DNA of 49,313 nt from an uncultured Thermotogae bacterium (GCA_964506635.1 CAZDMI010000002.1:1-49313), one strand, 5' to 3'. Counted from the stretch's first letter, positions 4,655 through 41,967 are shown. The notes: generated from the letters alone by a model not told the origin. Numbers and translations: made by a program.

Positions 4655-6154
4655 TTGAATTTAAACCCTAAACCGAACGGTATTCTGACCGTAGATGTAG
4701 GTACTTCTTCTTTGAAAACCGCCCTTTACAACCAGGACGGCACCGTACAAAGAAAAGAGATAAGTCGTTACTCCTATAATTCTCCTCAATCCGGCTGGGC
4801 TGAAGGAGACCCTAATGAATGGTGGGAGGCCTTTAAAAAAAATCTTTCCAAATTGAAAAAAGGGGCTCAAGGGATAAGGGATATCGGGGCTATTTCTTTT
4901 ACCGGTCAGATGCATACCGGAATACTTTTAGATAAAAATAAGGAACCAATTAAACCGACCATATTATGGCTAGATCAGCGGGCGGACCAGGAAGCGGAAG
5001 AACTAAGGAACGAACTGAACCTTCCCCCTTATAAGATTAGCAGTGCTTATACGATACCCAAGCTGCTCTGGTTGAAGAAAAACCACCCAGAAAAACTAGA
5101 AAAGACGGAAAAAATATTATGGCCCAAGGACTATCTACGATTCAAACTAACCGGAGAAGTACTGACAGACGTCACGGAAGCTGGCGGTTCGGGTATGCTC
5201 AATTGGCAAAGCAAAGAATGGGAAGAGGAAAGGGTAAAAAAGGTGGGCTTGAGAATGGATCAGCTTCCCCCGTTAAAAAATCCGGAGGAGAAGGCAGGGG
5301 AGATCAAAGAAGAATTTTTAGCAGAATTCGGTTTGAGCGACGATATAGAAGTCTTCACCGGGATCGGCGACGTTGCGGCATTAATGGGCGGTGCGCCTCC
5401 CGATGAAGGAAGAGTCACCTGTACTCTCGGCAGCTCCTCGATGATATTTATGTCACTGGGGGAAGAGGATGAAGTAATAAAAGACTCCGACGACCGCTTA
5501 TACACTTACCCATTATTCCCGTACTTTAATTTTTTTGGGGGAGTTTCATCCACCACCGGGGCTGCCCTCGAATGGGTACAAAATAAAATTACGGGGATAG
5601 AAGAGAGGGATAAGGAGTTCGAAGAAACCATTGAGGAGGCACTGGACGTCGAACCGGGATCAGATGGGCTAACTTTTATTCCGTACCTGAGCGGGGAACG
5701 GAGCCCGTTCTGGAGCGATGATATAAAAGGAGGGTTTTACGGCTTCAGGCTAAGTCACGACTATCGTCATGCCATAAGGGCCGTTATGGAAGGCATAGGT
5801 TTCAGCCTGCGCCATCTTTTGGAAATTTACAATGAACACGGACTACAGCCCGAAAAGCTATCTCTTGCAGGTGGAGGGGCTGACACGAAGGGCTGGCCTC
5901 AAATTATCGCGGACGTAACTCAGATGGAAGTGTCTATTTTCGCCGGACGCGGAAGTGAGGCAGTTACACGTGTACTATTTGCACTCTCGAGTTCGGAAAT
6001 GAACGAAGAAAGTTTCAAGCGAAACTTGGACAAAACATATGCGGACCCGGAGATCGTTCAACCAAGGAACGAGTTAGAGGGCGTATATTCGGAAGGGTAT
6101 CAAACCTATAAAGAATTAAGTAATTTTGCCTTAAAACAATCCGAGAAGCTTTAA
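4655..6154 (+). CDS. FGGY-family carbohydrate kinase (xylulokinase/LsrK-like)
   Basis: N-terminal phosphate-1 motif LTVDVGTSSLKTALY and C-terminal LAGGGADTKGWPQIIADV. 499 aa. TTG start 4 nt after GGAGGTG. Confidence 0.85.
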   Translation: MNLNPKPNGILTVDVGTSSLKTALYNQDGTVQRKEISRYSYNSPQSGWAEGDPNEWWEAFKKNLSKLKKGAQGIRDIGAISFTGQMHTGILLDKNKEPIKPTILWLDQRADQEAEELRNELNLPPYKISSAYTIPKLLWLKKNHPEKLEKTEKILWPKDYLRFKLTGEVLTDVTEAGGSGMLNWQSKEWEEERVKKVGLRMDQLPPLKNPEEKAGEIKEEFLAEFGLSDDIEVFTGIGDVAALMGGAPPDEGRVTCTLGSSSMIFMSLGEEDEVIKDSDDRLYTYPLFPYFNFFGGVSSTTGAALEWVQNKITGIEERDKEFEETIEEALDVEPGSDGLTFIPYLSGERSPFWSDDIKGGFYGFRLSHDYRHAIRAVMEGIGFSLRHLLEIYNEHGLQPEKLSLAGGGADTKGWPQIIADVTQMEVSIFAGRGSEAVTRVLFALSSSEMNEESFKRNLDKTYADPEIVQPRNELEGVYSEGYQTYKELSNFALKQSEKL

Positions 6155-6307: not shown

Positions 6308-7051
6308 ATGAATGACAATCGCCGTTTAAAAAGGTTGTTTTCTGGTCCAAACGATACCTGTTTACTTGTACCCATGGATCACGGTCCCTGGCTTGGACCA
6401 ATCGAAGGCATCAAGGAGCCAAGGGAGATTACTGAAAAGGTAATTTCCGGAGGTGCATCCGGCCTACTGGTAACCCCCGGTTTCGCTGAGACAATTAAGC
6501 CCGTTTTAACTCCAGATGTGGGTCTGGCACTGAGGACAAGCATTACTCTGGGTGCCAGTGAAGAAGCTCAACAGGAAACTCCGGTGGCATCAGTTGAGAC
6601 TGCCCTGAAGCTGGATGCAGATGCCGTTGCTGTGTCGATATTTTTCGGCCGAGGAGCGGAAACCGGTGTTATGGAGTACCTGGGGGAACTTACCGAACAA
6701 GCACATCGTTACGACATCCCAGTACTGGCGGAGATGATGCCCACTGGTGACGAACAGTACGATGCAGAATCCATAGAGCACGTCGCCAGAATTGGCATGG
6801 AGTTCGGGGGGGACATCGTTAAGACGAACTACTGTGGTGACCCAGCTGACTTTTCCGAAATCACGACGTCAGTTCAAAGGCCGGTAATAGTTGCCGGAGG
6901 GCCCAAATCCGAAAGCGGCTCTTCGCTTGAAAATTTGGTAAATGGTGCCGTCGAAGGTGGAGCTGCAGGGGTCGCAATTGGAAGGCGAGTCTGGCAATCG
7001 GATGATCCGGAAGCCACCGTACGGCAAATAAGTAACTTATTATCCTCCTAA
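6308..7051 (+). CDS. Class I aldolase of the DhnA/FbaB/LsrF family
   Basis: 247 aa. VPMDHGP near the N-terminus and a DIVKTNY segment carrying the expected Schiff-base Lys. Length is typical of DhnA-type TIM-barrel aldolases/thiolases. SD AGGAGAGG. Confidence 0.75.
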   Translation: MNDNRRLKRLFSGPNDTCLLVPMDHGPWLGPIEGIKEPREITEKVISGGASGLLVTPGFAETIKPVLTPDVGLALRTSITLGASEEAQQETPVASVETALKLDADAVAVSIFFGRGAETGVMEYLGELTEQAHRYDIPVLAEMMPTGDEQYDAESIEHVARIGMEFGGDIVKTNYCGDPADFSEITTSVQRPVIVAGGPKSESGSSLENLVNGAVEGGAAGVAIGRRVWQSDDPEATVRQISNLLSS

Positions 7052-7061
7052 TAAATCAATT

Positions 7062-8468
7062 ATGAGCCAAAAAGTCGATCTCTTGATCCGGGATGGGGCC
7101 ATACTGCCACTGGATGACGAAGAGGCGTCGGACTGGTCCGATACCCTTATTACGGACGGAATACTGGCCGTCAACCAGGGTGAAATAGTCGATATAGGAC
7201 CATCAAACGAGGTTGGTGACCGGTACGAAGGTAGAGAGACTATAGACGCTTCAGGCAAGCTCTTAATGCCGGGCCTCATAGATACCCATCATCACTTCCT
7301 CCAGAACTTTCTCAAGGGATCGCGCGATGACCTTCAGCTAAGTGAATGGATCGAGGAAGTATCTTCGCCCGTCATAAATATGGCTGTACAGGATTATCTG
7401 AAAGGAGAAACGGAAATCCAGACCCAGGCAACCAGGCTCGGCTGCCTGGAAGCCCTTAAATCGGGTATTACCACCATTCTAAATATGGAGTGGGCTACTG
7501 ATCCGGAGCTTGTATCGGAGTACGAGAGGTTCGGAATAAGGGTAGACCATACACTTACGTTCACGGATTTGGATGAGTGGGACAACCCGGAGATGTTGCT
7601 TCCTTTAGAACAGGGCTTTGAACTGGCCGAGGGTTGGATGAACCGATGCGACAAACTGGAACACGACAGAATAAACTTTAGATACGGTTTAGCTGATCCC
7701 ATATCCTGCAGCGAAAACCTTATAGGGGAAATCAGGGACAGGGCGGAAGAAGAGGAAGTTGGGATCCACACCCACGTAGCTGAAACTGAATACGAAGCAA
7801 CCGAAATCAAAAAAAGGCATGGCCTCACGCCGGTTGAATATCTACAGGAGCTTGATTTGCTGGGATCAAACGTCCTTGGAGCCCACGTCGTGTGGGTAGA
7901 AGACAAAGACATCCAGATACTCGCCGATTCAGAAACGAGTGTGGCCCACAACCCAGAATGTAATATGAAGCTCGCCGACGGCGTTGCACCGGTAAAGGAT
8001 ATGCTGGATGCTGGTATTCCTGTCTCAATTGGGACGGATACGACAGCAGCAAATGATAACATGGATATATTTGAAGCAATGCGAATTGCCGGGATGCTGC
8101 AAAAGGTCACTCAAAACGACCCATCCGTTTTACCAGCATACGAGGCTCTAAAGATGGGAACCCTTGGAGGGGCGCAAGCTCTTGGAAGAGATCAGTCAAT
8201 AGGGTCACTTGCCCGGGGTAAGAGAGCCGACGTAATTTTAGTAGAACTCGGTGGCATCCATATGCAGCCAATCAATAACCTGATTAACAACCTGGTTTAT
8301 TCTGCAAGCGCCGTTAACGATGTGGAAACAGTCATCGTTGACGGGGAAATCATAGTGAGAGAAAACGAGTTCGTAAGTATCGACGAAGAAAAAGTTCTGA
8401 AACAGAGCAAAGATTTTGCTCGTAACAGGTTTTCGGAGGAAGGAATTGAACTTCCACGCTATTACTAA
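7062..8468 (+). CDS. Amidohydrolase-superfamily aminohydrolase/deaminase (COG0402-like: MtaD/guanine deaminase/chlorohydrolase type)
   Basis: Metal ligands PGLIDTHHH (HxH), HTHVAETEYE (HxxE), GAHVVW and GTDT (Asp). 468 aa. Confidence 0.8.
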   Translation: MSQKVDLLIRDGAILPLDDEEASDWSDTLITDGILAVNQGEIVDIGPSNEVGDRYEGRETIDASGKLLMPGLIDTHHHFLQNFLKGSRDDLQLSEWIEEVSSPVINMAVQDYLKGETEIQTQATRLGCLEALKSGITTILNMEWATDPELVSEYERFGIRVDHTLTFTDLDEWDNPEMLLPLEQGFELAEGWMNRCDKLEHDRINFRYGLADPISCSENLIGEIRDRAEEEEVGIHTHVAETEYEATEIKKRHGLTPVEYLQELDLLGSNVLGAHVVWVEDKDIQILADSETSVAHNPECNMKLADGVAPVKDMLDAGIPVSIGTDTTAANDNMDIFEAMRIAGMLQKVTQNDPSVLPAYEALKMGTLGGAQALGRDQSIGSLARGKRADVILVELGGIHMQPINNLINNLVYSASAVNDVETVIVDGEIIVRENEFVSIDEEKVLKQSKDFARNRFSEEGIELPRYY

Positions 8469-8491
8469 AAAATTCGGAGGTATAAAAACTT

Positions 8492-9544
8492 ATGAAAGCT
8501 GCTCCGCTAAAAGAACCATATGAGTTTACTATTCAGGAAAAAGAGATCCCGGAACCGGGTCCAGAAGAAGTTTTGATTGAGGTTTCCACCTGTGGGATAT
8601 GTGGCACCGACCTTGAAGCTTACATGGGCAACGAACCTTCAAGCTGGAACATCGAGTATCCTTTCCAGATGGGCCACGAACTTTCAGGTACCGTAAAAGA
8701 AGTCGGAACCAACGTACCTGATCTGGCCGAGCTAGAAGAAGGGGATGCCGTAGTACCGGATGGTCGGGTTGTATGCAATGTATGTCATTACTGCCGCGAA
8801 GGGCAATATAATCTCTGCGAGAACCAGTCCTACATCGCGGCAGGGTTCTCACAATACGCGGTTTACCCGTATGAAAACCTGATTTCCGTCCCGGAAAGTG
8901 TTTCACTGGACGAGGCCGCTTTTACCGAACCCCTTTCCTGCTGCATCAACGGAAACGAAAAGCTCAATGACGTACCCCTGGGAGGAATAGGTGTCGTTAT
9001 TGGAGCCGGCCCAATTGGCCTTCTACATATGCAGTTGTTGCAAAATAGAGGCCTTGGAACAGTTATCGTCGACCTAAACTCCAGGAGACTCCAGGCGGCG
9101 AAAGAGCTGGGGGCTGATTATACGGTGGAGGTCGAGAGTCAGGGCGAGGTAAATCAGGATGTAGTAGACCTCGTGAACGATGTCTCCCACGGTAGAGGTG
9201 CGGACGTAGTGGTCAGTGCGGCAGGACATGATCCTTCAGTCCTTCAGGAAGCAATTGATATATCTTCCAAAAGGGGACAGATCGTTTATTTTGCCGCAAC
9301 GATGAGTGATCCCGTAACTCTTAACCTGGATCCAATTCACTATGAAGAATTAACTATTGTGGGAAGTCACGATTCTACCTTTGGTAAATACGAAACTGCT
9401 CTAGAAGTTATTGAGAGGGGTGTCGTAGACGTAGAGCCAATTATATCTCATCGCTTTCCTCTCGAAGAAATCGACGAAGCATTTGAAGTAGCCAAGAAGA
9501 AAGAAGACCTGAAAGTCATGGTCGATAATCCAGAAGCACAATAA
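8492..9544 (+). CDS. Zn-dependent medium-chain alcohol/polyol dehydrogenase
   Basis: CGICGTDLE and GHELSGTV catalytic-Zn motifs. Structural-Zn cysteines CNVCHYCREGQYNLC. Rossmann motif GAGPIGLL. SD GGAGGT. Confidence 0.85.
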   Translation: MKAAPLKEPYEFTIQEKEIPEPGPEEVLIEVSTCGICGTDLEAYMGNEPSSWNIEYPFQMGHELSGTVKEVGTNVPDLAELEEGDAVVPDGRVVCNVCHYCREGQYNLCENQSYIAAGFSQYAVYPYENLISVPESVSLDEAAFTEPLSCCINGNEKLNDVPLGGIGVVIGAGPIGLLHMQLLQNRGLGTVIVDLNSRRLQAAKELGADYTVEVESQGEVNQDVVDLVNDVSHGRGADVVVSAAGHDPSVLQEAIDISSKRGQIVYFAATMSDPVTLNLDPIHYEELTIVGSHDSTFGKYETALEVIERGVVDVEPIISHRFPLEEIDEAFEVAKKKEDLKVMVDNPEAQ

Positions 9545-9566
9545 ACAAATTCAGGAGTGATGTGAA

Positions 9567-10433
9567 ATGAAGATGAACAGTGTAGAAATTAAGGACACTT
9601 TTGCAGAAGCATGGGAACTAGAAGTTGTTAGGTTGGTAATAACGGCTATTTCGGAAGATATTGCCATGGAAGCCGCTCACCAATTCGTCGGTGCTGCCGG
9701 TTCCAGCGAATTAGGTTCAAACGTTTCCGGTGGAATTGAAGGTGCGGTCAGCCCTTCCGAAACTCCGGACGGTAGATCAGGAGTGGCTGTTCAGTTAACC
9801 ATGCCACCTGGAGAACACGAGCAACTAGTAGACCAGCTTGCCCTGAGGGTAGTACTATCAACTCTCGTTCCTTCCTGTGCAGTATTCGATTTCCCGGCAT
9901 CCGACGTAGAGACGGAAAGTATCGACCTTTACGGCGAAACTGAAGATAACTGGGAAGGGCACGACTGCGAGGAAGTAATTAGCGGGCACGAAATGGCCGT
10001 CACTCCAACGACTACTGGCAGTTTTAAGTACGAGAAAGAGGTAAGCTACTCTACGGAAGGTACTGATGGCCACTTTGTATGCTATGCCGATAACGAATCA
10101 GAAGCCATCTTCGCCGTAAAAGCAGCTAAAGCAGCAATAAAGGATATCGACGGTGTTTCGCCAATGGGATACGGACTCGAACAGGTGTACCGAGAATGGG
10201 ATTACGTACCCGCCCTGAGGGATGAGATAGAAGACAGTAAGGTTCCGGAAGACGTTAACTCGATACTCAACCTGTTGATGTTTGGATCCTCAATGGACAA
10301 AATGGAGAACGCAATGGAAGCTGGCCTTCGAGCAGCAACCAATTCCGGAGACTTAATCTCCATTGGTGCGATGAACTTTGGCGGTGAGTTCGGCAGTTAC
10401 GAATACCACCTTCACGATCTACTGGAAGCCTAA
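9567..10433 (+). CDS. Formylmethanofuran:tetrahydromethanopterin formyltransferase (Ftr/FhcD)-like protein
   Basis: 288 aa. VEIKDTFAEAW, SETPDGRSGVAV and the C-terminal MNFGGEFGSYEYHLHDLL align with remembered Ftr strings (VEIEDTFAEAF, ETPDGRPGV, GNFGGKLGQYEIHLHDL). Confidence 0.7.
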   Translation: MKMNSVEIKDTFAEAWELEVVRLVITAISEDIAMEAAHQFVGAAGSSELGSNVSGGIEGAVSPSETPDGRSGVAVQLTMPPGEHEQLVDQLALRVVLSTLVPSCAVFDFPASDVETESIDLYGETEDNWEGHDCEEVISGHEMAVTPTTTGSFKYEKEVSYSTEGTDGHFVCYADNESEAIFAVKAAKAAIKDIDGVSPMGYGLEQVYREWDYVPALRDEIEDSKVPEDVNSILNLLMFGSSMDKMENAMEAGLRAATNSGDLISIGAMNFGGEFGSYEYHLHDLLEA

Positions 10434-10447
10434 AAGAGGTGACCTAA

Positions 10448-11434
10448 ATGCGTTATCGAAAACTTGGTAGTACAGGCTTTAAGGTGTCTGAAATAGGATA
10501 CGGCGCCTGGGGAATAGGTGAAGGTGAATGGAAGGGGAGCTCGGAAGAAAAAGCATTCGAGTCACTAAACCTGGCAATAGACAACGGAGTTAACTTTATT
10601 GATACGGCTCTGGGCTATGGCGAAGGAAAAAGCGAGGAAATAGTGGGTGAGGCAGTAAGAAAACGGGACGAAAGGGTATACATCGGCACTAAAGTTCCGC
10701 CAAAGAACGATGAATACGTGCCCGGCCCCGAAGTACCTGTGGAAGAGGCTTATCCAAAGGACTGGATCCTTGAAGCAACCGAGAAGAGCCTTGAAAACCT
10801 AGGCCAGGACAAAATCGATTTTCTTCAACTCCATGTCTGGGTGGACGAGTGGGCAAAATCGGACGGTTGGAAAGAGGCGGTTTCAGAATTGAAAGATAGC
10901 GGGATGATCTCCTCTTTTGGATTGTCCCTGGTGTTCCCGTTTCCAGAAGAAGAGCCGAATTACCCGGCCAGAGCTATCGGAACGGGTCTAATAGATGCAT
11001 GTAACGTCGTCTACAACATTTACGAACAGGAGAAACCACAGGAAAACCTTTTCCCGCTCGCAGAAGAGGAAGAGGTAGGGGTGATTGCGAAGTCTCCCCT
11101 CGACGAAGGAGCGTTGACCGGTAAGATTACCCCGGAAACGGAATTTCCGGAAGACGACTGGAGAAACTGGTACTTTAGAGAAGACCGGAAAGAAGAAGTT
11201 TATCAGCGAGCTCAGGACCTGGAATGGATGATAGAGGAAGGGGAAGTAGACTCACTCCCCGAAGGTGCACTGAGGTTCGGGCTCAGTCACTCAGCAGTTT
11301 CTACGGTCATAGTTGGTATGCGGAGCCCGAAGCACGTGGAAGAGAACGTTAGCACCTCGGACAAGGGACCGCTACCCAAGAGCTACCTTGAAAGACTAGA
11401 GGACCACGCCTGGCATCACAATTACTGGGCTTAA
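10448..11434 (+). CDS. Aldo/keto reductase
   Basis: GYGAWGIG, FIDTALGYGEGKSE (Asp/Tyr), IGTKV (Lys) and LQLH (His) form the AKR catalytic tetrad pattern. SD AGAGGTGA. Confidence 0.85.
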   Translation: MRYRKLGSTGFKVSEIGYGAWGIGEGEWKGSSEEKAFESLNLAIDNGVNFIDTALGYGEGKSEEIVGEAVRKRDERVYIGTKVPPKNDEYVPGPEVPVEEAYPKDWILEATEKSLENLGQDKIDFLQLHVWVDEWAKSDGWKEAVSELKDSGMISSFGLSLVFPFPEEEPNYPARAIGTGLIDACNVVYNIYEQEKPQENLFPLAEEEEVGVIAKSPLDEGALTGKITPETEFPEDDWRNWYFREDRKEEVYQRAQDLEWMIEEGEVDSLPEGALRFGLSHSAVSTVIVGMRSPKHVEENVSTSDKGPLPKSYLERLEDHAWHHNYWA

Positions 11435-11446
11435 TTAATAAATAAC

Positions 11447-11490
11447 CCCCGGGGTAAAAAAGTTCTCTACCCCGGGGTAAATTTTTCTTT
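11447..11490 (+). terminator. Terminator/attenuator-like hairpin inside the cluster
   Basis: CCCCGGGGTA (11447-11456) pairs with TACCCCGGGG (11468-11477), giving a 10-bp GC-rich stem and an 11-nt loop. TAAATTTTTCTTT follows directly, before the ATG at 11491. Confidence 0.45.
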
Positions 11491-12870
11491 ATGTTTGAAC
11501 TCGTCATAAAAAACGGAACTATAGTGAATCCATCCGGGCGCTTTCGCGGTGACATCGGAATCAATGACCGGACCATCGAATCAGTATCGAAGAATCTAGA
11601 AGGAGAAAGCGAGATCGATGCTTCCGGTTGTTTTGTCGTTCCAGGTGGGGTAGACCCGCATACTCACTTAGAGATGCAATCGGGTGACCTGGTGACTGCC
11701 GATACATTTCATACCGGAACGATTGCGGCAAGCCACGGGGGGACTACCACAGTCATTGATTTCGTAGAGCCCGAGGAAGGCGTGTCATTGGAGGAGGCCT
11801 TTGAACGTAGAAAGGAAGCAGCGAATAACGAAGCTCAGCTGGACTATAGTTTCCATATGACGATTCCAAGCTGGCATGCAAGTCGGGGAATAGAGGAGCG
11901 GGAAATAAGGGGTTTAATGGATCAAGGAATTACCAGTTTTAAGTTATATCAGGCTTACGAGGGCTTAAAACTTGATGACGATCAACTTTACCAAGTCTTG
12001 AAAACACTGGGCTCTTTAAAAGGCTTACCAATAATCCACTCCGAAAACGGTCCTCTATCTAAGGCCCTCCAATCTGAAAAACTGGAAGAAAGCAAGTGTG
12101 AGCCACGATTCCACGCCGCGTCCAAACCCCCATTACAGGAGGCCGAAGCAGTAAGCAGGGCTATCGTTGTAGCCAACCTGGCTGACTCCCCCCTGTACGT
12201 AGTGCACGTGTCAGCGAAAAGATCCCTTCACAAAATACAAAAAGCAAGGAAGCGAGGCGAGGATATATACGGCGAAACCTGCCCGCAATACTTGCTCCTG
12301 GACAAAAAACTACTTGAGCAACCCAAAGGAGAAATGTACATTTGCTCTCCCCCTTTAAGAGAAGCAGAAGACCAAGAAGCTCTCTGGCAAAGCTTAAATT
12401 CTGGAGCTCTTCAGGTTGTGGCCACGGATCACGCTCCTTTTACGGAAGCAGAAAAGCTCAGCGGTAATGACTTTACTCAAGTTCCCGGCGGTCTTCCTTC
12501 AATAGAAGGCAGGTTAAGTTTCATTTATGATGCCGGGGTGAAAACTGGCAAGATTTCTCTGGAGAAGTGGGTAAGCATTACCTCAACTCGACCTGCTAGA
12601 ATCTTTGGTCTGGAAAAGAAAGGGTTGCTTGAACCGGGATACGATGCCGACATAGTTGTTTTTGATCCTCAAGTTAAACGGGAAATATCACCCGAGAATC
12701 TCCACGAAGACGTCGACTGGTCCCCTTACGAGGGGCTTCAGGTGGAAGGCTGGCCCAGGACAGTTATAAGTAAGGGGGAAGTTTTGATTTCAGAAGGAGA
12801 ATACCTCGGTAAAACTGAGAGAGGAGAGTTCGTCCAAAGAAAAATTTCGTCGGTATATTCAGACTTATAA
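11491..12870 (+). CDS. D-hydantoinase / dihydropyrimidinase (cyclic amidohydrolase)
   Basis: VPGGVDPHTHLEM, GGTTTVIDF, ITSFKLYQAY (carboxylated Lys), IHSENG, LYVVHVS, ATDHAPF and DADIVVFDP. Collinear with remembered D-hydantoinase sequences over the full length. Confidence 0.9.
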   Translation: MFELVIKNGTIVNPSGRFRGDIGINDRTIESVSKNLEGESEIDASGCFVVPGGVDPHTHLEMQSGDLVTADTFHTGTIAASHGGTTTVIDFVEPEEGVSLEEAFERRKEAANNEAQLDYSFHMTIPSWHASRGIEEREIRGLMDQGITSFKLYQAYEGLKLDDDQLYQVLKTLGSLKGLPIIHSENGPLSKALQSEKLEESKCEPRFHAASKPPLQEAEAVSRAIVVANLADSPLYVVHVSAKRSLHKIQKARKRGEDIYGETCPQYLLLDKKLLEQPKGEMYICSPPLREAEDQEALWQSLNSGALQVVATDHAPFTEAEKLSGNDFTQVPGGLPSIEGRLSFIYDAGVKTGKISLEKWVSITSTRPARIFGLEKKGLLEPGYDADIVVFDPQVKREISPENLHEDVDWSPYEGLQVEGWPRTVISKGEVLISEGEYLGKTERGEFVQRKISSVYSDL

Positions 12871-12885
12871 ATTAAACGGTGTAAA

Positions 12886-14199
12886 ATGAAATTATTACTC
12901 GGTAATTATTTAATAAATCCTCGTCAGGACCATCTCAAAAAAGAGTGTGGGGTCGCGATCGAGGATGGGATGATCAGGAAAGTAGCTGGCAACGGGAAAC
13001 TCCAGGAAGAGTATCCAGAGGCCGAAGTTATAGATTTAAGAGACAAGATCCTCTCTCCTGGGTTTATCAACTCTCACATGCATTCCTACGGTATTTTATC
13101 CCATGGAATAGAGACCCCAGAAATTGGCAGTTTCAAGGACTTTCTCGAAAAATTCTGGTGGCCAGAAGTGGAGAACCAAATAGACCATGGGTTAATAGAA
13201 ATTAGTACCAGGGCAGCCGCCTTAGAACTTATTAACAGTGGCGTTACAACATTTTGTAACGTTATGGAAGCACCCAATGCCCTCCCTGGAGCCCTTGCGA
13301 CACAGGCAGAGGTATTAGACCAGTTAAATGTCAGAGCCGTGCTGTCTTTTGAGGCTTCGGAAAGAATAAGCAGGGCCAATGGAAATAAGGGGCTCAAAGA
13401 AAACGTGGATTTCTCCCTCGAAAAGGAAAACGATTCCTTGCTCTCCGGTATGATGTGTGTCCATACCACTTTTACTTGTTCTCCGGATTTTATCGAAAAA
13501 GCGTCCGCTCTGAGCAAGGAAAACGGGCTCTCAGTTCAAATGCACCTGAATGAAAGTAGTTATGAACCCGAGGTATGCAAAGACCGGCATAACCTGGCCC
13601 CTGTACAGCTTTATCGAGATTTGGGGTTCCTGGATAACCACGTTTTGGCCTCTCAGGGGGTTAAGCTAAGCGAAGAAGAAATTCAGATTTTAAAGGATAA
13701 AGGAGTCAACCTCGCGCACGTCCCGCTGTCTAACTGTGAGGTTGGTGGGGGCATAGCTCCGGTTCCAGATTTACTCGAGAAAGGGATAAACGTTTCTTTA
13801 GGTACCGACGGATATATTAACAACTTCTTTGAAGTCATGCGCGCCGCTTTCTTGATCCACAAGGGAAACCTCGAGACACCAGACGTAATGCCCGCCAGAA
13901 AGGTCTTACAGTTAGCAACGGTTAACGGGGCAAACGCTTTTGGACTCAACAAGTTGGGACGTTTGAAAAAGGGGTATCGTGCCGACGTGATTGCGCTGGA
14001 TGCGGATTTCGAAACTCCTTTTCGGGACCACAATTATTACGAGCAGTTAATTATGAGGCGGAACCCCAAACACGTCAGAGACGTCTTCATCAACGGTAAT
14101 TCAGTAATGAGGAACGGCGAATTCACTTACACTTCTGTGGATTTGAAGTCGGCCAGAAAGGAATTAAACAAAGCAGCCCATAAACTTTGGAAAGGGTGA
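12886..14199 (+). CDS. Amidohydrolase-superfamily aminohydrolase (SsnA/chlorohydrolase-like)
   Basis: SPGFINSHMHSYG (HxH), VQMHLNESSYE (HxxE) and LGTDG (Asp). 437 aa. Confidence 0.75.
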   Translation: MKLLLGNYLINPRQDHLKKECGVAIEDGMIRKVAGNGKLQEEYPEAEVIDLRDKILSPGFINSHMHSYGILSHGIETPEIGSFKDFLEKFWWPEVENQIDHGLIEISTRAAALELINSGVTTFCNVMEAPNALPGALATQAEVLDQLNVRAVLSFEASERISRANGNKGLKENVDFSLEKENDSLLSGMMCVHTTFTCSPDFIEKASALSKENGLSVQMHLNESSYEPEVCKDRHNLAPVQLYRDLGFLDNHVLASQGVKLSEEEIQILKDKGVNLAHVPLSNCEVGGGIAPVPDLLEKGINVSLGTDGYINNFFEVMRAAFLIHKGNLETPDVMPARKVLQLATVNGANAFGLNKLGRLKKGYRADVIALDADFETPFRDHNYYEQLIMRRNPKHVRDVFINGNSVMRNGEFTYTSVDLKSARKELNKAAHKLWKG

Positions 14200-14206
14200 T
14201 ATCTTA

Positions 14207-15283
14207 ATGAATTTAGAAGTCTCTCTCCTTGGAAATACCCTAGAGAACCCGTTTGTTTTGGCTTCTGGCCCTTTAAGCTATAGCGCAGAAGGTATTATCA
14301 AGGCCGACCGGGCCGGGGCAGGGGCCATAGTAACTAAAACCATTCGCCAGGAGGCTGCGGAAAACCCTACCCCGCACATAGTTGAGTCGGACAATAATTC
14401 TTTGATAAACGCAGAAAAATGGTCCGACCTCCCCCCTGAACGATGGATCGAAGACGAAATACCCAGGGTAAATGACATCTCGGCCATGTTGATTGCAAGC
14501 ATAGGTCACACTGCCGCCGAAGTAGAAAGCTTTCTGGAGCCAGTTGAAGAAGCTGGAGCCGACGGGTTTGAACTCGTTTCTTATGACAGGAACACACTTT
14601 TGCCCATGGTAGAAAAGGCCCGTTCAATTACGAATAAGCCCGTACTCGTTAAGGTCAGCCCAAACTGGGATTCCCCGGTCGAAACTGCCCTGGAAGCACT
14701 TGAGGCCGGAGGAAGTGGGGTGACAGTAATGGATTCTCTGGGTCCGGTCCTGAAAATCGATATCGAAAAAGAGAGTCCACTGCTGGGTAGTGAAAACGGA
14801 ACTGGGTGGCTCAGTGGAGAAGCGATCAACCCGCTGATGCTAAGATACGTTGCACAGATCGCGAGTTCAACCGAAAAACCCATCATCGCCACTGGGGGGA
14901 TCACCTCGGCAGAAGACGCAATGGAAGCCTTGATGGCCGGCGCCGCTGCGACAGGGCTTTGCTCTGCCGCGATCTTGAAGGGAGTGGAGTACTTTGGAAC
15001 CCTCCGACAGGATATGGAGGATTTGATGAACTCCATGGAATATGAGACCCCATCGGAGGTAACTGGAGCGGCTTTGAAAAACGTAACCGGCAAGGAACAT
15101 TCAAACGAGTTGTCCTTCAAGTTCGATGAAAATAAATGCATAAACTGTGGCAGATGTGTGACTGTTTGCTCGTATGATGCCAGAAGTCTGGAAAATGGTA
15201 AGATGGAACTAAGTAAAGAGAGATGTAGACACTGCGGTCTGTGTGTATCAGTGTGTCCTACCGAGGCTTTAACTCATGAATAA
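14207..15283 (+). CDS. Dihydroorotate/dihydropyrimidine dehydrogenase-like flavoprotein with C-terminal 2x[4Fe-4S] ferredoxin domain (PreA-like)
   Basis: NPFVLASGPLS, IVTKTI and GGITSAEDA form a DHODH-type TIM barrel. The C-terminus has CINCGRCVTVCS and CRHCGLCVSVCP. SD AAGGGTGAT. Confidence 0.8.
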   Translation: MNLEVSLLGNTLENPFVLASGPLSYSAEGIIKADRAGAGAIVTKTIRQEAAENPTPHIVESDNNSLINAEKWSDLPPERWIEDEIPRVNDISAMLIASIGHTAAEVESFLEPVEEAGADGFELVSYDRNTLLPMVEKARSITNKPVLVKVSPNWDSPVETALEALEAGGSGVTVMDSLGPVLKIDIEKESPLLGSENGTGWLSGEAINPLMLRYVAQIASSTEKPIIATGGITSAEDAMEALMAGAAATGLCSAAILKGVEYFGTLRQDMEDLMNSMEYETPSEVTGAALKNVTGKEHSNELSFKFDENKCINCGRCVTVCSYDARSLENGKMELSKERCRHCGLCVSVCPTEALTHE

Positions 15284-15316
15284 GGGAAAGATTTTTATAC
15301 CCAAGGAGGATTCAAT

Positions 15317-17173
15317 ATGGGGCTAACCGCAGAAATTAACCTTTCGGAAAATCAGGTAAAAGTTAGAGAGACCGAAAAGGAACTCTATTCTAAATTTTTA
15401 GGGAGCAGGGGGTATGCAGCAAAAATACTCTATGACCGTGTTGGTCCCGAAGTGGATCCGCTAGATCCCGAGAACCTGCTCATATTTTCTACGGGGCCTC
15501 TAACCGGAACTCCCTGGCCAACTTCTGCTCGATACACTCTAACAGGAAAATCCCCTCTGACGGGAATATATGGATACTCTAATTCTTCCGGATATTTTGG
15601 CCCGGAGCTAAAAAAAGCAGGCTTCGACGCGCTTGTATTCTCAGGTGAGTCCTCCGAACCACAGGTTTTATTCATAGACAACCAGGACCTCCAATTAATC
15701 TCAGCTGATGAATACTGGGGTATGACTACAAAAGAAGTAGAGGATGAGCTCAAGGAAAGGTTTTCCGGAGTAAAAGTCGCCTCCATTGGACCCGCCGGAG
15801 AGAACCTGGTTAAGTTCTCTTCCGTAGTCAACGACTATAGCCGAACGGCAGCTCGCTGTGGTTTAGGAGCTGTTATGGGCTCTAAAAATTTGAAAGCCGT
15901 TGCCGTACGCGGCGAAGGTGAAGTCGACTACAGTTCTGAATTCGCGGATATTGCAAAACGGATGATGCAAAAAGTAGGGCAACACCCAGGTTCAAAATCC
16001 TTAAGAAAATGGGGTACTGCCCACTTAATAGGGCCCAAAAACGTCCGGGGAGATTTACCCACGAGAAATCATCAATACGCCCAGTTCAAAGACGCCGATC
16101 AGATAGACGCAAAGAGTCTGGATGAGTACGTTACGAAAAACTCGGGCTGTTATTCCTGTCCCATTGCCTGTTCTCGTCACTCTAAAGTGGATAAAGGTAA
16201 ATATAAGAGTGAAGTCGAGGGACCCGAGTACGAAACGATGGATTCCCTGGGGCCACTGGTGGGGAACGGTGATCTAGAATCCATCATACATGGAAACCTC
16301 TTATGCAATCGCCTTGGAATCGATACCATTTCTACGGGAGTAGTAATCGCCTTTGCAATGGAATGCCACGAAAATGGTTTACTGGATAGCGAGGACTTAA
16401 GCCTCGAATGGGGGGATAGCGAAACTGTTATCCAGCTAATTCAGGATATTTCTCACAGGCAAGGTTTAGGTGAAACACTGGCAGAGGGAGTTCAAGATGC
16501 CGCCAATAAAATAGGAGGCGGCGCTTCTTACTACGCTATGCACGTAAAAGGAATGGAGATGCCCAGACAAGAACCGAGAGTTTGTAAATCCTATGGCCTG
16601 GCTCATTCTACTTCTAATAGGGGCGCGGACCATCTTTACGCCTTACCTACAATAGATTTAACCAACAACGAGGAAGTCGGAGAAAGCTTCTTCTCCGAAT
16701 GTATGCCCGAGGTCCTTGATCACGTAGATGAGACCTGTAAGCCCGATATGATCGTCTTTACTGAAGCTTTTAACGCGATATCCGATGCACTGGGCGTCTG
16801 CAAATTCTCAACAACCGAGAACTTTGCTCTTTATCCCGAGGATCTCGCAAGAGGACTCAGTACTTTTAAAGAATTTGAGCTTGACGGAAAGGCTTTGATC
16901 AAGGCAGGAGAAAGAATTGTAAATCTAGAACGGATGTATAATCACCGTCATGGTATAGATAGAACGGACGATCAATTACCCGAGAGGATACTGGAAGAGC
17001 AAATATCGGTATACGACATGGACACCGGAGAACAGGTGGAAGAGGGTTTGGAAGTGGATTTAGCATCGATGCTCGACCGGTATTACGAATTGAGGGGTTG
17101 GACCGAGGACGGAACACCCAAAGCTTCCAAACTCGAGGAATTAGAACTGGGTAGTCTAATTGAAGACATATAA
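15317..17173 (+). CDS. Tungsten-type aldehyde:ferredoxin oxidoreductase family protein (AOR paralogue 2)
   Basis: 618 aa. CYSCPIAC plus GVCKFST cysteines, EYE and GADHLY. Collinear with the AOR at 2459-4345. SD AGGAGG. Confidence 0.9.
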   Translation: MGLTAEINLSENQVKVRETEKELYSKFLGSRGYAAKILYDRVGPEVDPLDPENLLIFSTGPLTGTPWPTSARYTLTGKSPLTGIYGYSNSSGYFGPELKKAGFDALVFSGESSEPQVLFIDNQDLQLISADEYWGMTTKEVEDELKERFSGVKVASIGPAGENLVKFSSVVNDYSRTAARCGLGAVMGSKNLKAVAVRGEGEVDYSSEFADIAKRMMQKVGQHPGSKSLRKWGTAHLIGPKNVRGDLPTRNHQYAQFKDADQIDAKSLDEYVTKNSGCYSCPIACSRHSKVDKGKYKSEVEGPEYETMDSLGPLVGNGDLESIIHGNLLCNRLGIDTISTGVVIAFAMECHENGLLDSEDLSLEWGDSETVIQLIQDISHRQGLGETLAEGVQDAANKIGGGASYYAMHVKGMEMPRQEPRVCKSYGLAHSTSNRGADHLYALPTIDLTNNEEVGESFFSECMPEVLDHVDETCKPDMIVFTEAFNAISDALGVCKFSTTENFALYPEDLARGLSTFKEFELDGKALIKAGERIVNLERMYNHRHGIDRTDDQLPERILEEQISVYDMDTGEQVEEGLEVDLASMLDRYYELRGWTEDGTPKASKLEELELGSLIEDI

Positions 17174-20539: not shown

Positions 20540-20547
20540 GGTTTTAA

Positions 20548-23637: not shown

Positions 23638-23646
23638 TTTTCCTCC

Positions 23647-25995: not shown

Positions 25996-26024
25996 ATAAT
26001 CCTCCTTTTAAGGGTACCACTTAT

Positions 26025-41963: not shown

Positions 41964-41967
41964 CTCG

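Follow-up and report, generated by a model that had tools for sequence, protein, structure and literature searches.

The window analyzed here, a stretch of 49,313 nucleotides, contains nine closely spaced plus-strand genes (g1 to g9) at 6308 to 17173, which would be the center of a ~19-kb catabolic locus (~2.4 to 21.6 kb of the window). Its host is apparently a member of the Bipolaricaulota/Acetothermia. The predicted ORFs coincide exactly with the coordinates given in an earlier sequence-only reading of this DNA, and the intergenic gaps are likewise 10, 23, 22, 14, 56, 15, 7, and 33 nt. That reading gave most of the genes GGAGG-type ribosome binding sites, which is fair, since GGAG/GAGG-type sites lie 5 to 12 nt upstream of six of the nine (g1, g3, g4, g5, g9, and, weakly, g8), while those of g2, g6, and g7 are weak or missing. 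Pfam and NCBIfam profiles bear out the gene families that it named (hydantoinase, SsnA-like, FeS flavoprotein, FTR, and AFOR); g1, g3, and g5 (an aldolase, a Zn-ADH, and an aldo-keto reductase) had been left unnamed. The flanks are also as described, with an aldehyde:ferredoxin oxidoreductase (AOR1) and an FGGY kinase upstream and, downstream, a corrinoid protein followed by a methyltransferase like MtmB. Gene order is identical in a related metagenome contig (L042, ~87% nucleotide identity), and dN/dS against this contig is 0.03 to 0.15 for each of the nine genes. The nine genes are real, under purifying selection, and functional.

The FGGY kinase and three of the nine genes are a sugar/polyol module that the earlier reading missed. 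All coordinates below refer to the plus strand unless stated. The kinase (4655 to 6154; FGGY_N and FGGY_C domains) is xylulokinase-like, with a score of 345.6 bits against TIGR01312 XylB that is under the cut-off of 380. It is present at 25 of 31 loci with an Ftr-like gene, normally immediately 5' of the aldolase, and in most genomes it opens the set of genes called cassette A below. The aldolase, g1 (6308 to 7051; Pfam DeoC), is a DhnA/DeoC-type class I enzyme like ADH synthase and archaeal FBP aldolase. Its top PDB match is MJ0400, it does not reach the cut-off of NF005556 (216 bits vs 241), and aldolases of this type occur at 23 of the 31 loci. By Pfam and NCBIfam profiles g2 (7062 to 8468) is a deaminase-type amidohydrolase of the TRZ/ATZ family, closest to the MTA, SAH, and 5'-deoxyadenosine deaminases (PDB 4f0r, 203 bits). 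It scores under all of the MtaD, DadD, and guanine deaminase cut-offs and shares 26% identity with E. coli GuaD. Of the motifs, HxH, HxxE, and Asp are retained; a different segment aligns where MTA deaminases have WPxE, which we take to be the site of the ribose-binding Glu. The Zn-dependent medium-chain dehydrogenase g3 (8492 to 9544; ADH_N and ADH_zinc_N; dN/dS 0.032) resembles threonine, sorbitol, and scyllo-inosose dehydrogenases, scores under all NCBIfam cut-offs, and is always placed between the TRZ/ATZ and Ftr-like genes at the 31 loci. The Ftr-like protein g4 (9567 to 10433) has the FTR and FTR_C domains of the formylmethanofuran:H4MPT formyltransferase fold and misses the cut-offs of both NF002554 (175 bits vs 297) and TIGR03119 (142 bits vs 293). 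The Glu of the formyltransferase is thought to stabilize an oxyanion. Asn235 of g4 aligns with this Glu, part of YE(I)V in 1ftr, 1m5s, 1m5h, and 6s6y_D, and all 121 of 121 members of the Ftr-like family have Asn at the position, where it is thus invariant. Cassette A is closed by the aldo-keto reductase (AKR) g5 (10448 to 11434; Pfam Aldo_ket_red), which is found at 24 of the 31 loci, mostly directly 3' of the Ftr-like gene or of an inserted corrinoid/MttB pair.

The next three genes match three steps of a ygeW-ygfT type pathway, those of HyuA, SsnA, and a PydA-type reductase; the sequence-only reading had drawn this likeness, and profiles, identities, and domain architecture uphold it. The HyuA/PydB-like D-hydantoinase/dihydropyrimidinase g6 (11491 to 12870) clears the TIGR02033 cut-off of 393 bits with a score of 516 and shares 40% identity with E. 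coli HyuA; its start at ATG 11491 is backed by changes in L042 that are confined to third positions. The best NCBIfam matches of the TRZ/ATZ amidohydrolase g7 (12886 to 14199) are SsnA models, although the scores are under the cut-offs (274 vs 444 and 246 vs 455), and its identity to E. coli SsnA is 27%. It falls in a clade that is sister to SsnA and is a candidate for the hydrolase that opens the ring. At other loci this clade adjoins genes for PreA/PydA-type reductases, XDH, OTCase-like proteins, and M20 proteins. The three amidohydrolases thus lie outside the housekeeping clades, g2 being below their cut-offs, g7 SsnA-like, and g6 above the hydantoinase cut-off. The product of g8 (14207 to 15283; Pfam) has an FMN (DHO_dh) domain and a C-terminal 2x[4Fe-4S] domain and lacks an FAD/NAD(P)H domain. 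It misses the cut-off of PreA NF006183 (166 bits vs 335), in the PDB it matches DHODH B and, in DPD, the FMN domain, and it is presumably a ferredoxin-dependent ring reductase of the UacX/PydAc/PreA type.

The same three genes could instead constitute a ferredoxin-dependent reductive Pyd pathway, in which uracil or thymine would come from a pyrimidine nucleoside and g7 would be a cytosine-type deaminase. In agreement with this, g6 clears the dihydropyrimidinase equivalog model, g8 has the FMN-plus-ferredoxin-domain architecture of Pyd reductases, and cytosine deaminases are found among the TRZ/ATZ enzymes. However, SsnA is the best family match of g7, and no beta-ureidopropionase (PydC) is present among the window genes scanned. 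In addition, the g7 clade is tied to the reductase gene and is accompanied by XDH, YgeW-like OTCase, and YgeY-like M20 proteins, which mark a purine pathway rather than the Pyd pathway. Pyrimidine degradation by these genes is rather improbable.

The locus has two AORs. AOR1 (2459 to 4345; ORF 2450/2459, with ATG 2459 behind AGGAGG) and AOR2, which is g9 (15317 to 17173), both have AFOR_N and AFOR_C domains and are 43% identical to each other. In an alignment of the two paralogues, in which 1AOR was not included, the EYET and GADH segments, which we take to be catalytic motifs of AOR, are ungapped and nearly identical. The best PDB match of AOR1 is 1AOR, with 457 bits vs 209 for BamB, and the corresponding scores of AOR2 are 418 and 203 bits; the 1AOR matches are full length, whereas the BamB matches cover part of the length. 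Judged by these comparisons, AOR1 and AOR2 are canonical aldehyde:ferredoxin oxidoreductase paralogues, nearest to Pyrococcus AOR and not BamB-like, and the parallel with dearomatization by BamB drawn in the sequence-only reading is not supported.

Downstream of AOR2 are a corrinoid protein (17343 to 18023; B12-binding_2 and B12-binding domains, with the DxHxxG motif as DIHDVG) and a non-pyrrolysine methyltransferase of the MtmB family (18025 to 19416; Pfam MtmB, profile positions 4-450 of 450, in an uninterrupted ORF). The more likely starts are ATG 17343 and ATG 18025, each behind GGAGG. A corrinoid protein adjoins the core at 16 of the 31 Ftr-like loci, and the methyltransferase beside the core is MtmB-like at 9 and MttB-like at 16 of them. 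A non-pyrrolysine MtmB homologue is known to demethylate quaternary amines. Three further genes are on the minus strand. A gene at 230 to 1264 (Pfam DAP_DH_C) resembles 2,4-diaminopentanoate dehydrogenase, of the amine dehydrogenase family, although it misses the cut-off of NCBIfam Ord (164 bits vs 400). It is a possible accessory member of the locus, and homologues with 68 to 70% identity lie within or beside the core cassette at two loci (L012 and L021). An SDR (19751-20623; Pfam) and a GFO/IDH/MocA oxidoreductase (20548-21561; Pfam) are probable accessory sugar oxidoreductases; both are syntenic in L042 with 92 to 93% identity, and their homologues stand in line after the AKR in L009 and L038.

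Synteny shows that the string is not a single nine-gene pathway, as first proposed, but a composite of two independently conserved cassettes that have been joined. Cassette A consists of the FGGY kinase, DhnA aldolase, TRZ/ATZ, Zn-ADH, Ftr-like, and AKR genes together with the corrinoid protein and non-pyrrolysine MtmB, while cassette B consists of the HyuA-like, SsnA-like, and UacX/PydAc-like genes and AOR. The gene order is conserved in L042 and L043, and synteny of the core of cassette A extends to about 30 species in the Chloroflexota, Bacillota, and Spirochaetota. The string is accordingly a conserved catabolic unit, contrary to the lack of conserved order that the sequence-only reading had named first as grounds for rejecting it. 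For cassette A, no paper describing it was found in the literature. Across the 31 Ftr-like loci the recurring order is [Cor-MttB/MtmB]-FGGY-DhnA-(GlcD-GlcF)-TRZ/ATZ-ZnADH-Ftr-AKR. The TRZ/ATZ-ZnADH-Ftr triad is contiguous at 26 of the 31, and the GlcD/GlcF-like pair, of which the window has none, is found at about 21.

The cassettes and the methyltransferase pair might be unrelated operons on a horizontally acquired island, with no common substrate. Each cassette is mostly found without the other. The sugar/deaminase cassette of the Ftr-like gene usually lacks hydantoinase, SsnA, PreA, and AOR (SsnA/PreA at only 3 and AOR at 6 of the 31 loci), and among 80 SsnA-like loci an Ftr-like gene is present at only 2 and a gene of the sugar module (FGGY/DhnA) at 4. 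Formimonas has both clusters, 24 kb apart, and the G+C of the island is below that of the housekeeping part of the window. Moreover, the junction of the cassettes has a GC-rich hairpin (11447 to 11477; RNA fold) with a 10-bp stem, an 11-nt loop, and then a short U-tract. Its folding energy is -20.6 kcal/mol (z = -3.1), L042 and L043 have exactly the same stem despite a dS of ~0.55 in the flanking genes, and it is possibly a partial terminator or an mRNA-processing or stability element. Against the absence of a common substrate, the cassettes are joined in varied arrangements in L009, L011, L017, L023, L041, L065, and L116, and such independent fusions with different gene orders, at least seven other loci in three phyla, argue for a functional link. 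TRZ/ATZ-GlcD-GlcF(-Ftr) blocks are joined to ring cassettes in L053, L106, L113, and L116. AOR genes are intermixed with the two cassettes, AOR1 standing before FGGY and AOR2 after g8, and methyltransferase/corrinoid pairs occur within both cluster types, with an MtmB- or MttB-like methyltransferase inside the purine-type clusters of L040, L049, and L122. A chance assembly of unconnected operons is very unlikely.

The distribution of AORs suggests that they are linked to the reductase. Among 34 well-flanked SsnA-like metagenome loci, which are not phylogenetically independent, AOR accompanies the FAD-less (short) reductase in 10 of 12 loci vs 2 of the 22 others (odds ratio 50, p = 3e-5), and AOR and XDH are weakly mutually exclusive (AOR only at 7, XDH only at 18, both at 5; odds ratio 0.16, p = 0.026), with XDH at 5 of the 12 AOR-bearing loci. 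AOR1 orthologues (55 to 65% identity) lie directly 5' of SsnA-like/PreA-like pairs at many metagenome loci, and AOR2 orthologues (50 to 69% identity) lie 3' of SsnA-like/PreA or PydA pairs or beside XDH. The sequence-only reading had AORs taking the place of the Mo/Se hydroxylase; as putative tungsten-pterin enzymes they would then replace XdhD/DOPDH and take an oxo group off a purine-like ring, or put one on, before dearomatization. Its positional part stands: the slot after the AKR holds a three-subunit XDH-family enzyme in L008 and L038 and AORs in L009, L011, L017, L023, L024, L028, and the window. The partial exclusion of XDH points the same way, as do the fixed positions of AOR1- and AOR2-type orthologues by SsnA-like and PreA-like genes, including at loci that lack a visible sugar module. 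In Mo aldehyde oxidases, the oxidation of aldehydes and the hydroxylation of heterocycles are formally the same chemistry. On the other hand, both proteins are in the ordinary AOR clade, and to our knowledge BamB is the only AOR-family enzyme that acts on a ring and none hydroxylates an N-heterocycle. AOR and XDH are directly adjacent in L041, L122, and L123, and the XDH-family enzyme in the slot after the AKR could itself be an aldehyde oxidoreductase. Because the AORs are canonical, track the FAD-less reductase, and exclude XDH only weakly, action on the ring is possible but not the best reading, and we consider it unlikely. A supply of electrons by aldehyde oxidation fits better. A pure electron-supply role is weakened by the loci where AOR occurs with a long NAD(P)H-type PydA (L055, L057, L061, L096, and L123) or beside XDH, and the many AOR-SsnA-PreA cassettes without a visible sugar module leave the source of aldehyde there unexplained.

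A plausible though tentative explanation of the whole locus is that the two cassettes degrade a nucleoside-like substrate with ferredoxin-linked opening of its ring. Cassette A would act on a nucleoside-like, N-methylated, amino-substituted compound. The AKR and Zn-ADH may isomerize the sugar or polyol part by reduction and re-oxidation, after which the xylulokinase-like FGGY kinase would phosphorylate it and g1 would cleave the product to DHAP and a short aldehyde. An exocyclic amine or amidine could be hydrolyzed by g2, a formyl-level one-carbon unit transferred or removed by g4, and an N-methyl group removed by the corrinoid/MtmB pair. In cassette B (g6 to g9 and AOR1), g8 would reduce the heterocycle, g7 would open the six-membered ring, and g6 would open the resulting hydantoin or dihydropyrimidine, while AOR1 and AOR2 would oxidize pathway aldehydes to acids and provide low-potential electrons, as reduced ferredoxin, for g8. 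Counting against the proposal are the distance of g7 from SsnA, the absence of the oxyanion Glu from the Ftr-like protein, and the changed WPxE segment of g2. The substrate of the joined cassettes is probably a methylated nucleoside-like or pterin-like compound used by uncultured anaerobes, the most likely candidates being methylated purine nucleosides and pterin cofactors. The methyltransferase/corrinoid pairs of both cluster types speak for the methyl group. A nucleoside-like substrate is suggested by the PnrA/Bmp-type binding proteins within the core of L012, L022, L025, and L026, by the Bmp transporter before the ring cluster of Formimonas, and by the nucleoside deaminases that are the nearest relatives of g2. 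The window contains no nucleoside hydrolase or phosphorylase. Creatinine or N-methylhydantoin, also suggested earlier, would leave the sugar module unaccounted for.

The reductive urate (2,8-dioxopurine) pathway was solved biochemically in 2025. In this pathway 2,8-dioxopurine is converted to ureidomethyl-hydantoin by UacX or YgfK with SsnA, and HyuA then opens the hydantoin ring. As the sequence-only reading had noted, carbamoyltransferase, M20 peptidase, and diaminopropionate ammonia-lyase are absent from the whole window, and so is XDH; with none of the downstream ureido-cleaving enzymes (YgeW/UacY, YgeY, and YgeX) encoded there, the product of cassette B would need enzymes encoded elsewhere. 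Cassette B thus matches the dearomatizing and hydrolyzing steps of the urate pathway but lacks XdhD, YgeW, YgeY, and YgeX, and it may be a ferredoxin-linked version of those steps. PydAc is an FAD-less reductase that depends on ferredoxin, and the domain architecture of g8 is the one published for both PydAc and UacX.

The nine-gene string in the window is real, and its structure is more interesting than was recognized from the sequence alone. The ORF listing contains nine plus strand genes (g1 to g9, 6308-17173) exactly where the sequence-only reading had placed them: 6308-7051, 7062-8468, 8492-9544, 9567-10433, 10448-11434, 11491-12870, 12886-14199, 14207-15283, and 15317-17173. The intergenic gaps are 10, 23, 22, 14, 56, 15, 7, and 33 nt, as had been claimed. 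That most of the genes have GGAGG-type ribosome binding sites also holds, since GGAG/GAGG-type sites precede six of the nine genes and are absent or weak for g2, g6, and g7. The flanks are as described earlier, with an AOR (AOR1, 2459-4345) and a xylulokinase-like FGGY kinase (4655-6154) upstream and a corrinoid protein and a methyltransferase downstream. Three genes that had been left unnamed, g1, g3, and g5, were identified with Pfam and NCBIfam as a DhnA/DeoC aldolase, a Zn-dependent polyol/alcohol dehydrogenase, and an aldo-keto reductase (AKR). The aldolase is of class I, and its top PDB match is MJ0400. The other genes encode a TRZ/ATZ amidohydrolase (g2), an Ftr-like protein (g4), a HyuA-like hydantoinase (g6), an SsnA-like hydrolase (g7), a reductase with a DHO_dh FMN domain and two [4Fe-4S] motifs by Pfam and NCBIfam (g8), and a second AOR (g9, or AOR2). 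The gene order is conserved elsewhere. In L042, one of the comparison loci on genome and metagenome contigs (L-numbers), the order is identical from the FGGY kinase through a GFO/SDR pair at about 87% nucleotide identity, and dN/dS between the two is 0.03-0.15 across all genes. The window contig is present in six public assemblies.

The distribution of the genes shows that the string combines two cassettes. A profile search for the Ftr-like protein in one-genome-per-species GTDB contigs gave 29 loci, and further loci came from exact-protein look-up. The hosts are Anaerolineae and other Chloroflexota, Clostridia and other Bacillota (including 'Candidatus Formimonas warabiya' DCMF), and one member of the Spirochaetales. 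In the combined set of 31 non-redundant loci, the genes recur in the order [corrinoid-MttB/MtmB]-FGGY-DhnA-GlcD-like-GlcF-like-TRZ/ATZ-ZnADH-Ftr-AKR. The TRZ/ATZ, Zn-dehydrogenase, and Ftr-like genes are contiguous in 26 of the 31, and FGGY (25), AKR (24), DhnA (23), GlcD (21), and GlcF (22) are nearly as frequent. A corrinoid protein and an MttB-like protein are each found in 16 loci and an MtmB-like protein in 9, while an AOR is present in 6/31, SsnA-like and PreA-like genes in 3/31, and a hydantoinase in 2/31. The converse search gave a similar picture. The g7 clade includes 1940 proteins at E <= 1e-30 among 8000 candidates scored and has more than 560 confirmed matches in metagenomes; in 80 sampled g7-clade loci, an Ftr-like gene was found in two and a sugar-module gene (FGGY or DhnA) in four. 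These counts divide the string into cassette A (g1-g5, the FGGY kinase, and the methyltransferase pair) and cassette B (g6-g9 and AOR1). Cassette A, which includes the Asn-type Ftr homologue, is both conserved and widespread, and the Ftr-like family as a whole comprises about 920 database clusters.

The two cassettes are fused repeatedly and in varied orders, which speaks for a common substrate and against chance adjacency. The order AKR-AOR2-(Hyd)-ferredoxin-AOR1-SsnA-PreA is found in L009, L011, L017, and L023. In L065 the Ftr core is followed by SsnA and a long PydA, in L041 a ring cluster is followed by GntR-FGGY, and L116 has the order SsnA-PreA-TRZ/ATZ-GlcD-GlcF-Ftr. In Formimonas warabiya (CP017634, ~3.18-3.25 Mb; L040 and L020), 24 kb separates an Ftr-type cassette from a purine-type ring cluster on the same strand. 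The former also encodes an ECF transporter, a pterin-binding methyltransferase, GcvH, and a URO-D protein. Five loci (L053, L106, L113, L116, and L121) have distant TRZ/ATZ, GlcD-like, and GlcF-like homologues (25-35% identity) joined to AOR/SsnA-like/PreA-like cassettes without a kinase or aldolase. Because of this kinase- and aldolase-free attachment to ring cassettes, the GlcD/GlcF-like FAD/FeS pair may act on the heterocycle and not on a sugar-derived hydroxy acid. The GlcD-like partner found in other genomes could not be assigned as a glycolate, lactate, or 2-hydroxyglutarate enzyme, since solved structures (D-lactate dehydrogenases) match its FAD domain only.

The junction of the cassettes in the window is marked by a hairpin between g5 and g6, the sole standout among regulatory signals on manual reading. 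It has a 10-bp GC stem and a short U-tract, with an RNA folding energy of -20.6 kcal/mol (z = -3.1). The stem is unchanged in L042 and L043, though adjacent synonymous sites have diverged to dS ~0.55, and it may be a partial terminator or stability element. A motif shared between the hairpin and the region upstream of AOR1, CCCCCGGGG, was dropped because two copies are no more than expected by chance. A promoter and terminator scan found sites no commoner than in shuffled sequence. No Rfam family matched anywhere in the window at gathering thresholds, and hence there was no riboswitch clue to the ligand.

Cassette B is a new version, linked to ferredoxin and AOR, of a pathway reported in 2025. 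The anaerobic urate pathway was solved in two preprints (Li et al. 2025, bioRxiv 10.1101/2025.05.19.654654; Liu et al. 2025, bioRxiv 10.1101/2025.04.24.650524). XdhD/DOPDH forms 2,8-dioxopurine, which YgfK then dearomatizes, a step performed in C. difficile by UacX, a PF01180 enzyme that lacks FAD; opening of the pyrimidine ring by SsnA yields ureidomethyl-hydantoin, whose own ring is opened by HyuA, and YgeW/UacY, YgeY, and YgeX complete the route (Li et al. 2025; Liu et al. 2025). The sequence-only reading had called the string a candidate for an undescribed pathway. This is true of cassette A, which has no known function, but chemistry of the cassette B type was already part of the 2025 work. 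The hydantoinase assignment of g6 holds, with 516 bits against the TIGR02033 cut-off of 393 and 40% identity to E. coli HyuA over 458 aa. The SsnA-type assignment of g7 holds in part: SsnA is its best-scoring family, but it falls below the cut-offs (246 bits against 455.5 for TIGR03314 and 274 against 444 for NF005540), and it is 27% identical to E. coli SsnA. We take TIGR03314 to be the signature behind InterPro IPR017700, the marker family of the published urate-pathway network. With a score below TIGR03314, the g7 clade is probably outside the family surveyed in that network.

Several partners of the urate cluster are missing from the window, and the absence noted earlier is borne out. XdhD, YgfK, YgeW, YgeX, YgeY, and the carbamate kinase YqeA have no counterpart in the 49 kb by tblastn and domain searches. 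E. coli XdhD and YgfM gave no tblastn match in the window, and no Ald_Xan_dh domains were found among the ORFs scanned. Pfam domains of the OTCace and DAP-lyase families are likewise absent, and the window has nothing more closely related than an M19 dipeptidase and biosynthetic arg genes. Membership in an E. coli-type ygeW-ygfT cluster was rejected, as the window lacks five of the eight genes that define it. XDH, YgeW-like, and YgeY-like partners are, however, present in clusters that contain g7 relatives of about 50% identity. L040 from Formimonas has Bmp-ABC, corrinoid, MtmB, M20, OTCase-like, SsnA-like, three-subunit XDH, and long PydA genes, and L041, L122, and L123 have M20, OTCase-like, short or long reductase, SsnA-like, (corrinoid-MtmB), XDH, and AOR genes. 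These urate-type neighbors suggest that the g7 clade is a sister branch of SsnA in purine-type ring degradation. L123 encodes a UbiD-family decarboxylase (8571-9908) between its long PydA and SsnA-like genes, and in L122 (12765-14842) and L049 a corrinoid/MtmB pair lies between the SsnA-like gene and XDH. These extra genes hint at carboxylated or N-methylated heterocycle substrates.

The two AORs are predicted to be ordinary aldehyde oxidizers that supply electrons to the ring reductase. By sequence, both belong to AOR sensu stricto and are not BamB-like; BamB is the ring-reducing member of the AOR family. Against PDB sequences, AOR1 scores 457 bits and g9 418 bits with 1AOR, the Pyrococcus enzyme, over the full length, compared to 209 and 203 bits with BamB, where only the N-terminal two-thirds align. 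Scores of AOR1 and g9 with other branches are 356 and 299 bits for FOR, 225 and 226 for WOR5, and below 50 for GAPOR. Both proteins have AFOR_N and AFOR_C domains and align over their full length with 1AOR, 9g7j, 9mqx, and 8c0z. They are 43% identical to each other and align without gaps over the CxxCxxxC, EYET, and GADH segments, presumably the cluster, cofactor, and catalytic motifs of AOR. Orthologues of AOR1 are found directly upstream of SsnA-PreA, often behind a polyferredoxin, and those of AOR2 are found downstream of the reductase or adjoining XDH. The AORs would oxidize aldehydes and generate reduced ferredoxin for the FAD-less reductase g8, and the aldolase of cassette A would be the obvious aldehyde source in the window.

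It had been proposed instead that a tungsten AOR takes the place of the Mo/Se hydroxylase, which would mean that AOR itself carries out ring (de)hydroxylation. This is possible, and it draws some support from gene position and from statistics: the slot after the AKR gene is occupied by a three-subunit XDH-family enzyme in L008 and L038 and by AORs in other genomes, and AOR and XDH are partly exclusive. Of the 34 loci flanked by 4 kb or more on each side, 7 have AOR without XDH, 18 XDH without AOR, 5 both, and 4 neither (odds ratio 0.16, p = 0.026); the loci are phylogenetically non-independent, and the p-value is indicative only. It is not the best-supported reading, however. AOR and XDH lie side by side in L041, L122, and L123, AOR accompanies the long NAD(P)H-type PydA in several loci, and we know of no precedent for ring (de)hydroxylation in the AOR family. 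Over the 34 loci, an AOR was present in 10 of 12 with a short reductase but in 2 of 22 others (odds ratio 50, p = 3e-5, likewise indicative only). This pairing of AOR with FAD-less reductases, which would fit aldehyde oxidation coupled to ferredoxin, is a tendency and not a rule, and strict pairing was rejected because of exceptions (L055, L057, L061, L096, and L123). The window showed no tungstate transporter. In L009, L011, L017, and many metagenome loci, a polyferredoxin gene (YgfS/AorA-like) precedes AOR1; the window lacks it, and no remnant was detected. Upstream of AOR1 is an AT-rich stretch of about 1.2 kb (1265-2450), whose sole ORF (105 aa) has no family match and in which no pseudogene of any neighbor-locus protein could be recognized.

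Taken as a whole, the features of cassette A suggest a substrate that resembles a nucleoside, is N-methylated and amino-substituted, and bears an unusual sugar or polyol. An AKR, a Zn-dependent polyol dehydrogenase, and a XylB-like kinase are the enzyme families of the oxidoreductive aldose-to-ketose route, as in fungal xylose utilization. In the DHAP shunt for 5-deoxyribose and methylthioribose, a kinase and then an aldolase produce DHAP and a short aldehyde. The FGGY kinase of the window scores 345.6 bits against the XylB model, below its cut-off of 380. A DhnA-type class I aldolase acting after a kinase implies cleavage to DHAP and an aldehyde and not entry into the pentose phosphate pathway. 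The amidohydrolase g2 is nearest to nucleoside (MTA/SAH) deaminases and keeps the HxH/HxxE/Asp machinery. It lies outside the MtaD/DadD housekeeping clade, with 319 bits against 522 for NF005557 and 230 against 779 for NF012037, and is below every curated cut-off. The segment of g2 aligned with WPxE of MTA deaminases, which presumably carries the ribose-binding Glu, differs.

Transporters and methyltransferases are embedded in cassette A. The cassette A core includes PnrA/Bmp nucleoside-type ABC systems in L012, L018, L022, L025, and L026, ECF modules in L012, L020, L029, and L036, and CUT1 sugar-type ABC systems in L021, L027, L030, L032, and L034; the transporter type varies by lineage, and the regulators are of the GntR/UTRA type. 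In the 31 loci, a corrinoid protein with a non-Pyl MttB- or MtmB-family methyltransferase is found upstream of FGGY or between Ftr and AKR. The MtmB-like protein of the window matches the Pfam profile over positions 4-450 of 450 and is encoded by an uninterrupted ORF without an in-frame amber codon, and the motif DxHxxG is present in the corrinoid protein as DIHDVG. A mechanical ORF list starts the MtmB-like gene at GTG 17962, which would overlap the corrinoid gene by 62 nt. More likely starts are ATG 18025 for the MtmB-like gene and ATG 17343 for the corrinoid gene, each 6-8 nt behind GGAGG and matching the gene calls of the public contig L001. Creatinine or N-methylhydantoin, an earlier candidate substrate, is not borne out, as it leaves the kinase, aldolase, polyol dehydrogenase, and AKR genes and the PnrA-type transporters unexplained. 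A literature search found no description of cassette A or of the combination of Ftr, FGGY, aldolase, and amidohydrolase.

The Ftr-like protein g4 departs from Ftr proper in two features, family score and oxyanion Glu. It has full-length Pfam FTR and FTR_C domains (E = 8.6e-25 and 1.9e-20) and aligns with 1ftr over residues 1-285. It scores below the curated cut-offs, with 175.5 bits against 297 for NF002554 and 142.1 against 292.6 for TIGR03119. In FhcD, protonated Glu252 has been proposed to stabilize the tetrahedral oxyanion (PMC6926001). The Glu of the YE(I)V/LEIV motif found in all four solved Ftr/FhcD sequences aligns with Asn235 of g4, and Asn occupies the oxyanion-Glu position in 121 of 121 Ftr-like homologues. 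Because an amide is still able to act as a hydrogen-bond donor, this substitution would be compatible with activity of g4. Neither the window nor the 31 loci showed genes of the H4MPT/methanofuran pathway (Fwd, Mch, Mtd, or Fae-type), and a search for literature on Ftr in Chloroflexi found nothing relevant.

A more specific proposal is that the locus scavenges a C1-loaded polyol-bearing pterin (methanopterin-type) or a purine nucleoside that is methylated and cationic, for example 7-methylguanosine, and that the Ftr-like protein recovers the formyl carbon. We consider this improbable. To our knowledge, the Ftr fold is known only from H4MPT and methanofuran enzymes. Under such a scheme methanogens would be the source of the pterin cofactor, and the Ftr-like protein would remove an N-formyl group, either cofactor-bound or as formamide from imidazole-ring opening. 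The corrinoid/MtmB pair would remove an N-methyl group, the TRZ/ATZ enzyme would deaminate the 2-amino group, and the ribityl or ribosyl chain would be converted to DHAP and an aldehyde. The remaining dione ring would be reduced with AOR-derived ferredoxin and then hydrolyzed. If true, this scheme would give such a cofactor or modified nucleoside its first catabolic route, and an Ftr homologue of bacterial non-methylotrophs its first function.

Base composition and sequence relationships suggest that the catabolic region is a horizontally acquired island or that the contig is chimeric. G+C ranges over 0.40-0.48 in the first ~36 kb and over 0.54-0.555 in the remainder. ArgG (41968-43224) is 80-89% identical to proteins of Candidatus Acetothermia/Bipolaricaulota, while the nearest relatives of the catabolic genes outside the species are from Anaerolineae (55-63% identity). 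Searches gave no tRNA in the entire window and no integrase domain in the scanned ORFs, so neither marks the border. The region at 36259-48980 is a LysW-carrier-type arginine/lysine biosynthesis cluster, consisting of the housekeeping genes carB, carA, argH, and argG (minus strand), then two LysX/ArgX-type ATP-grasp ligases, a semialdehyde dehydrogenase, an amino-acid kinase, and a class III aminotransferase. A second catabolic neighborhood (22825-35657) may be a mannoside utilization locus. It has a CUT1 ABC transporter (binding protein at 24607-25995 and two permeases) and a GH38 alpha-mannosidase of 1070 aa (26611-29823), followed by a phosphomannose-isomerase-like protein, an M19 dipeptidase, a GntR/FCD regulator, and a sulfatase. 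A minus-strand ORF of 222 aa (22081-22749), located between the GFO/SDR pair and the ABC permeases, has no Pfam match.

If the model of a reductive ring cassette joined to a nucleoside-like sugar cassette holds, the purine pathway described in 2025 has a large unexplored sister branch, as the more than 560 metagenome matches indicate. This branch would run on ferredoxin and recruit AOR-family enzymes and sometimes corrinoid demethylases. Anaerobic degradation of N-heterocycles would then reach sediments, digesters, and the subsurface, well beyond gut bacteria. The bacterial Ftr-like family would gain its first physiological context outside methanogenesis and methylotrophy, namely one-carbon removal in the breakdown of nucleoside-like compounds. 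The model would also provide a testable handle on the diet of abundant uncultured Anaerolineae, Clostridia, and Bipolaricaulota, and one carrier, 'Candidatus Formimonas warabiya' DCMF, is cultured.

Cassette B resembles known ring-degrading systems in part. As in the urate cluster, a PydA-type flavin/FeS reductase, an adjoining TRZ/ATZ ring-opening hydrolase, and a HyuA-type hydantoinase are contiguous in the window. Unlike the urate cluster, the window adds two AORs and a fusion to the sugar/Ftr-like cassette, and relatives add corrinoid/MtmB pairs. Like UacX and PydAc, g8 has PF01180 and two [4Fe-4S] motifs but no FAD domain, and it would be the dearomatizing reductase. PydAc of Clostridium chromiireducens is a biochemically proven ferredoxin-dependent FAD-less relative that acts on uracil (PMC7332683). 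The pairing of an FAD-less FMN/FeS reductase with a hydrolase of the dihydropyrimidinase family in strict anaerobes is shared with the Pyd pathway, and reduced ferredoxin is the expected donor. In contrast to Pyd, there is a PydA-like g8 and a PydB-like g6 but no PydC, as the scanned ORFs of the window gave no beta-ureidopropionase family; the set always includes an SsnA-like hydrolase, and the neighbors are purine-type. At 358 aa, g8 is also shorter than the Pyd reductase, with an FMN and one ferredoxin domain. The known AOR of Pyrococcus furiosus and bacterial AorABC systems differ in that the AORs here are two paralogues, each at its own conserved position beside ring-degradation genes, and the window lacks the polyferredoxin of its relatives.

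Cassette A combines features of several systems. It shares the AKR, Zn-dependent polyol dehydrogenase, and XylB-like FGGY kinase with the fungal xylose route, and the pairing of a kinase with an aldolase with the DHAP shunt. It differs from the DHAP shunt and the pentose route in having a class I DhnA aldolase, not a class II enzyme, and in lacking an isomerase; its kinase is of the FGGY type and not the MtnK type of the DHAP shunt. The only characterized non-Pyl MtmB homologue with its corrinoid protein is MtqB/MtqC, which demethylates the quaternary amines tetramethylammonium and choline (PMC13044021). The window pair is similar in its amber-free MtmB-family protein and adjoining DxHxxG corrinoid protein. 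Unlike MtqB/MtqC, it is bacterial and embedded in heterocycle/sugar clusters, and an MttB-family paralogue replaces or joins MtmB in many relatives. In the Fhc complex of methylotrophs, an Ftr homologue works with an amidohydrolase (PMC6926001). Like Ftr of methanogens and FhcD of methylotrophs, g4 keeps both Pfam domains and well conserved terminal motifs (DTFAEA... and NFGG...HLH), and like FhcD with FhcA it is genetically coupled to an amidohydrolase. However, this partner is of the TRZ/ATZ type, unlike FhcA/FwdA, and the hosts of the g4 family are Chloroflexota, Bacillota, Spirochaetota, and Bipolaricaulota, which sets them apart from the carriers of Ftr/FhcD.
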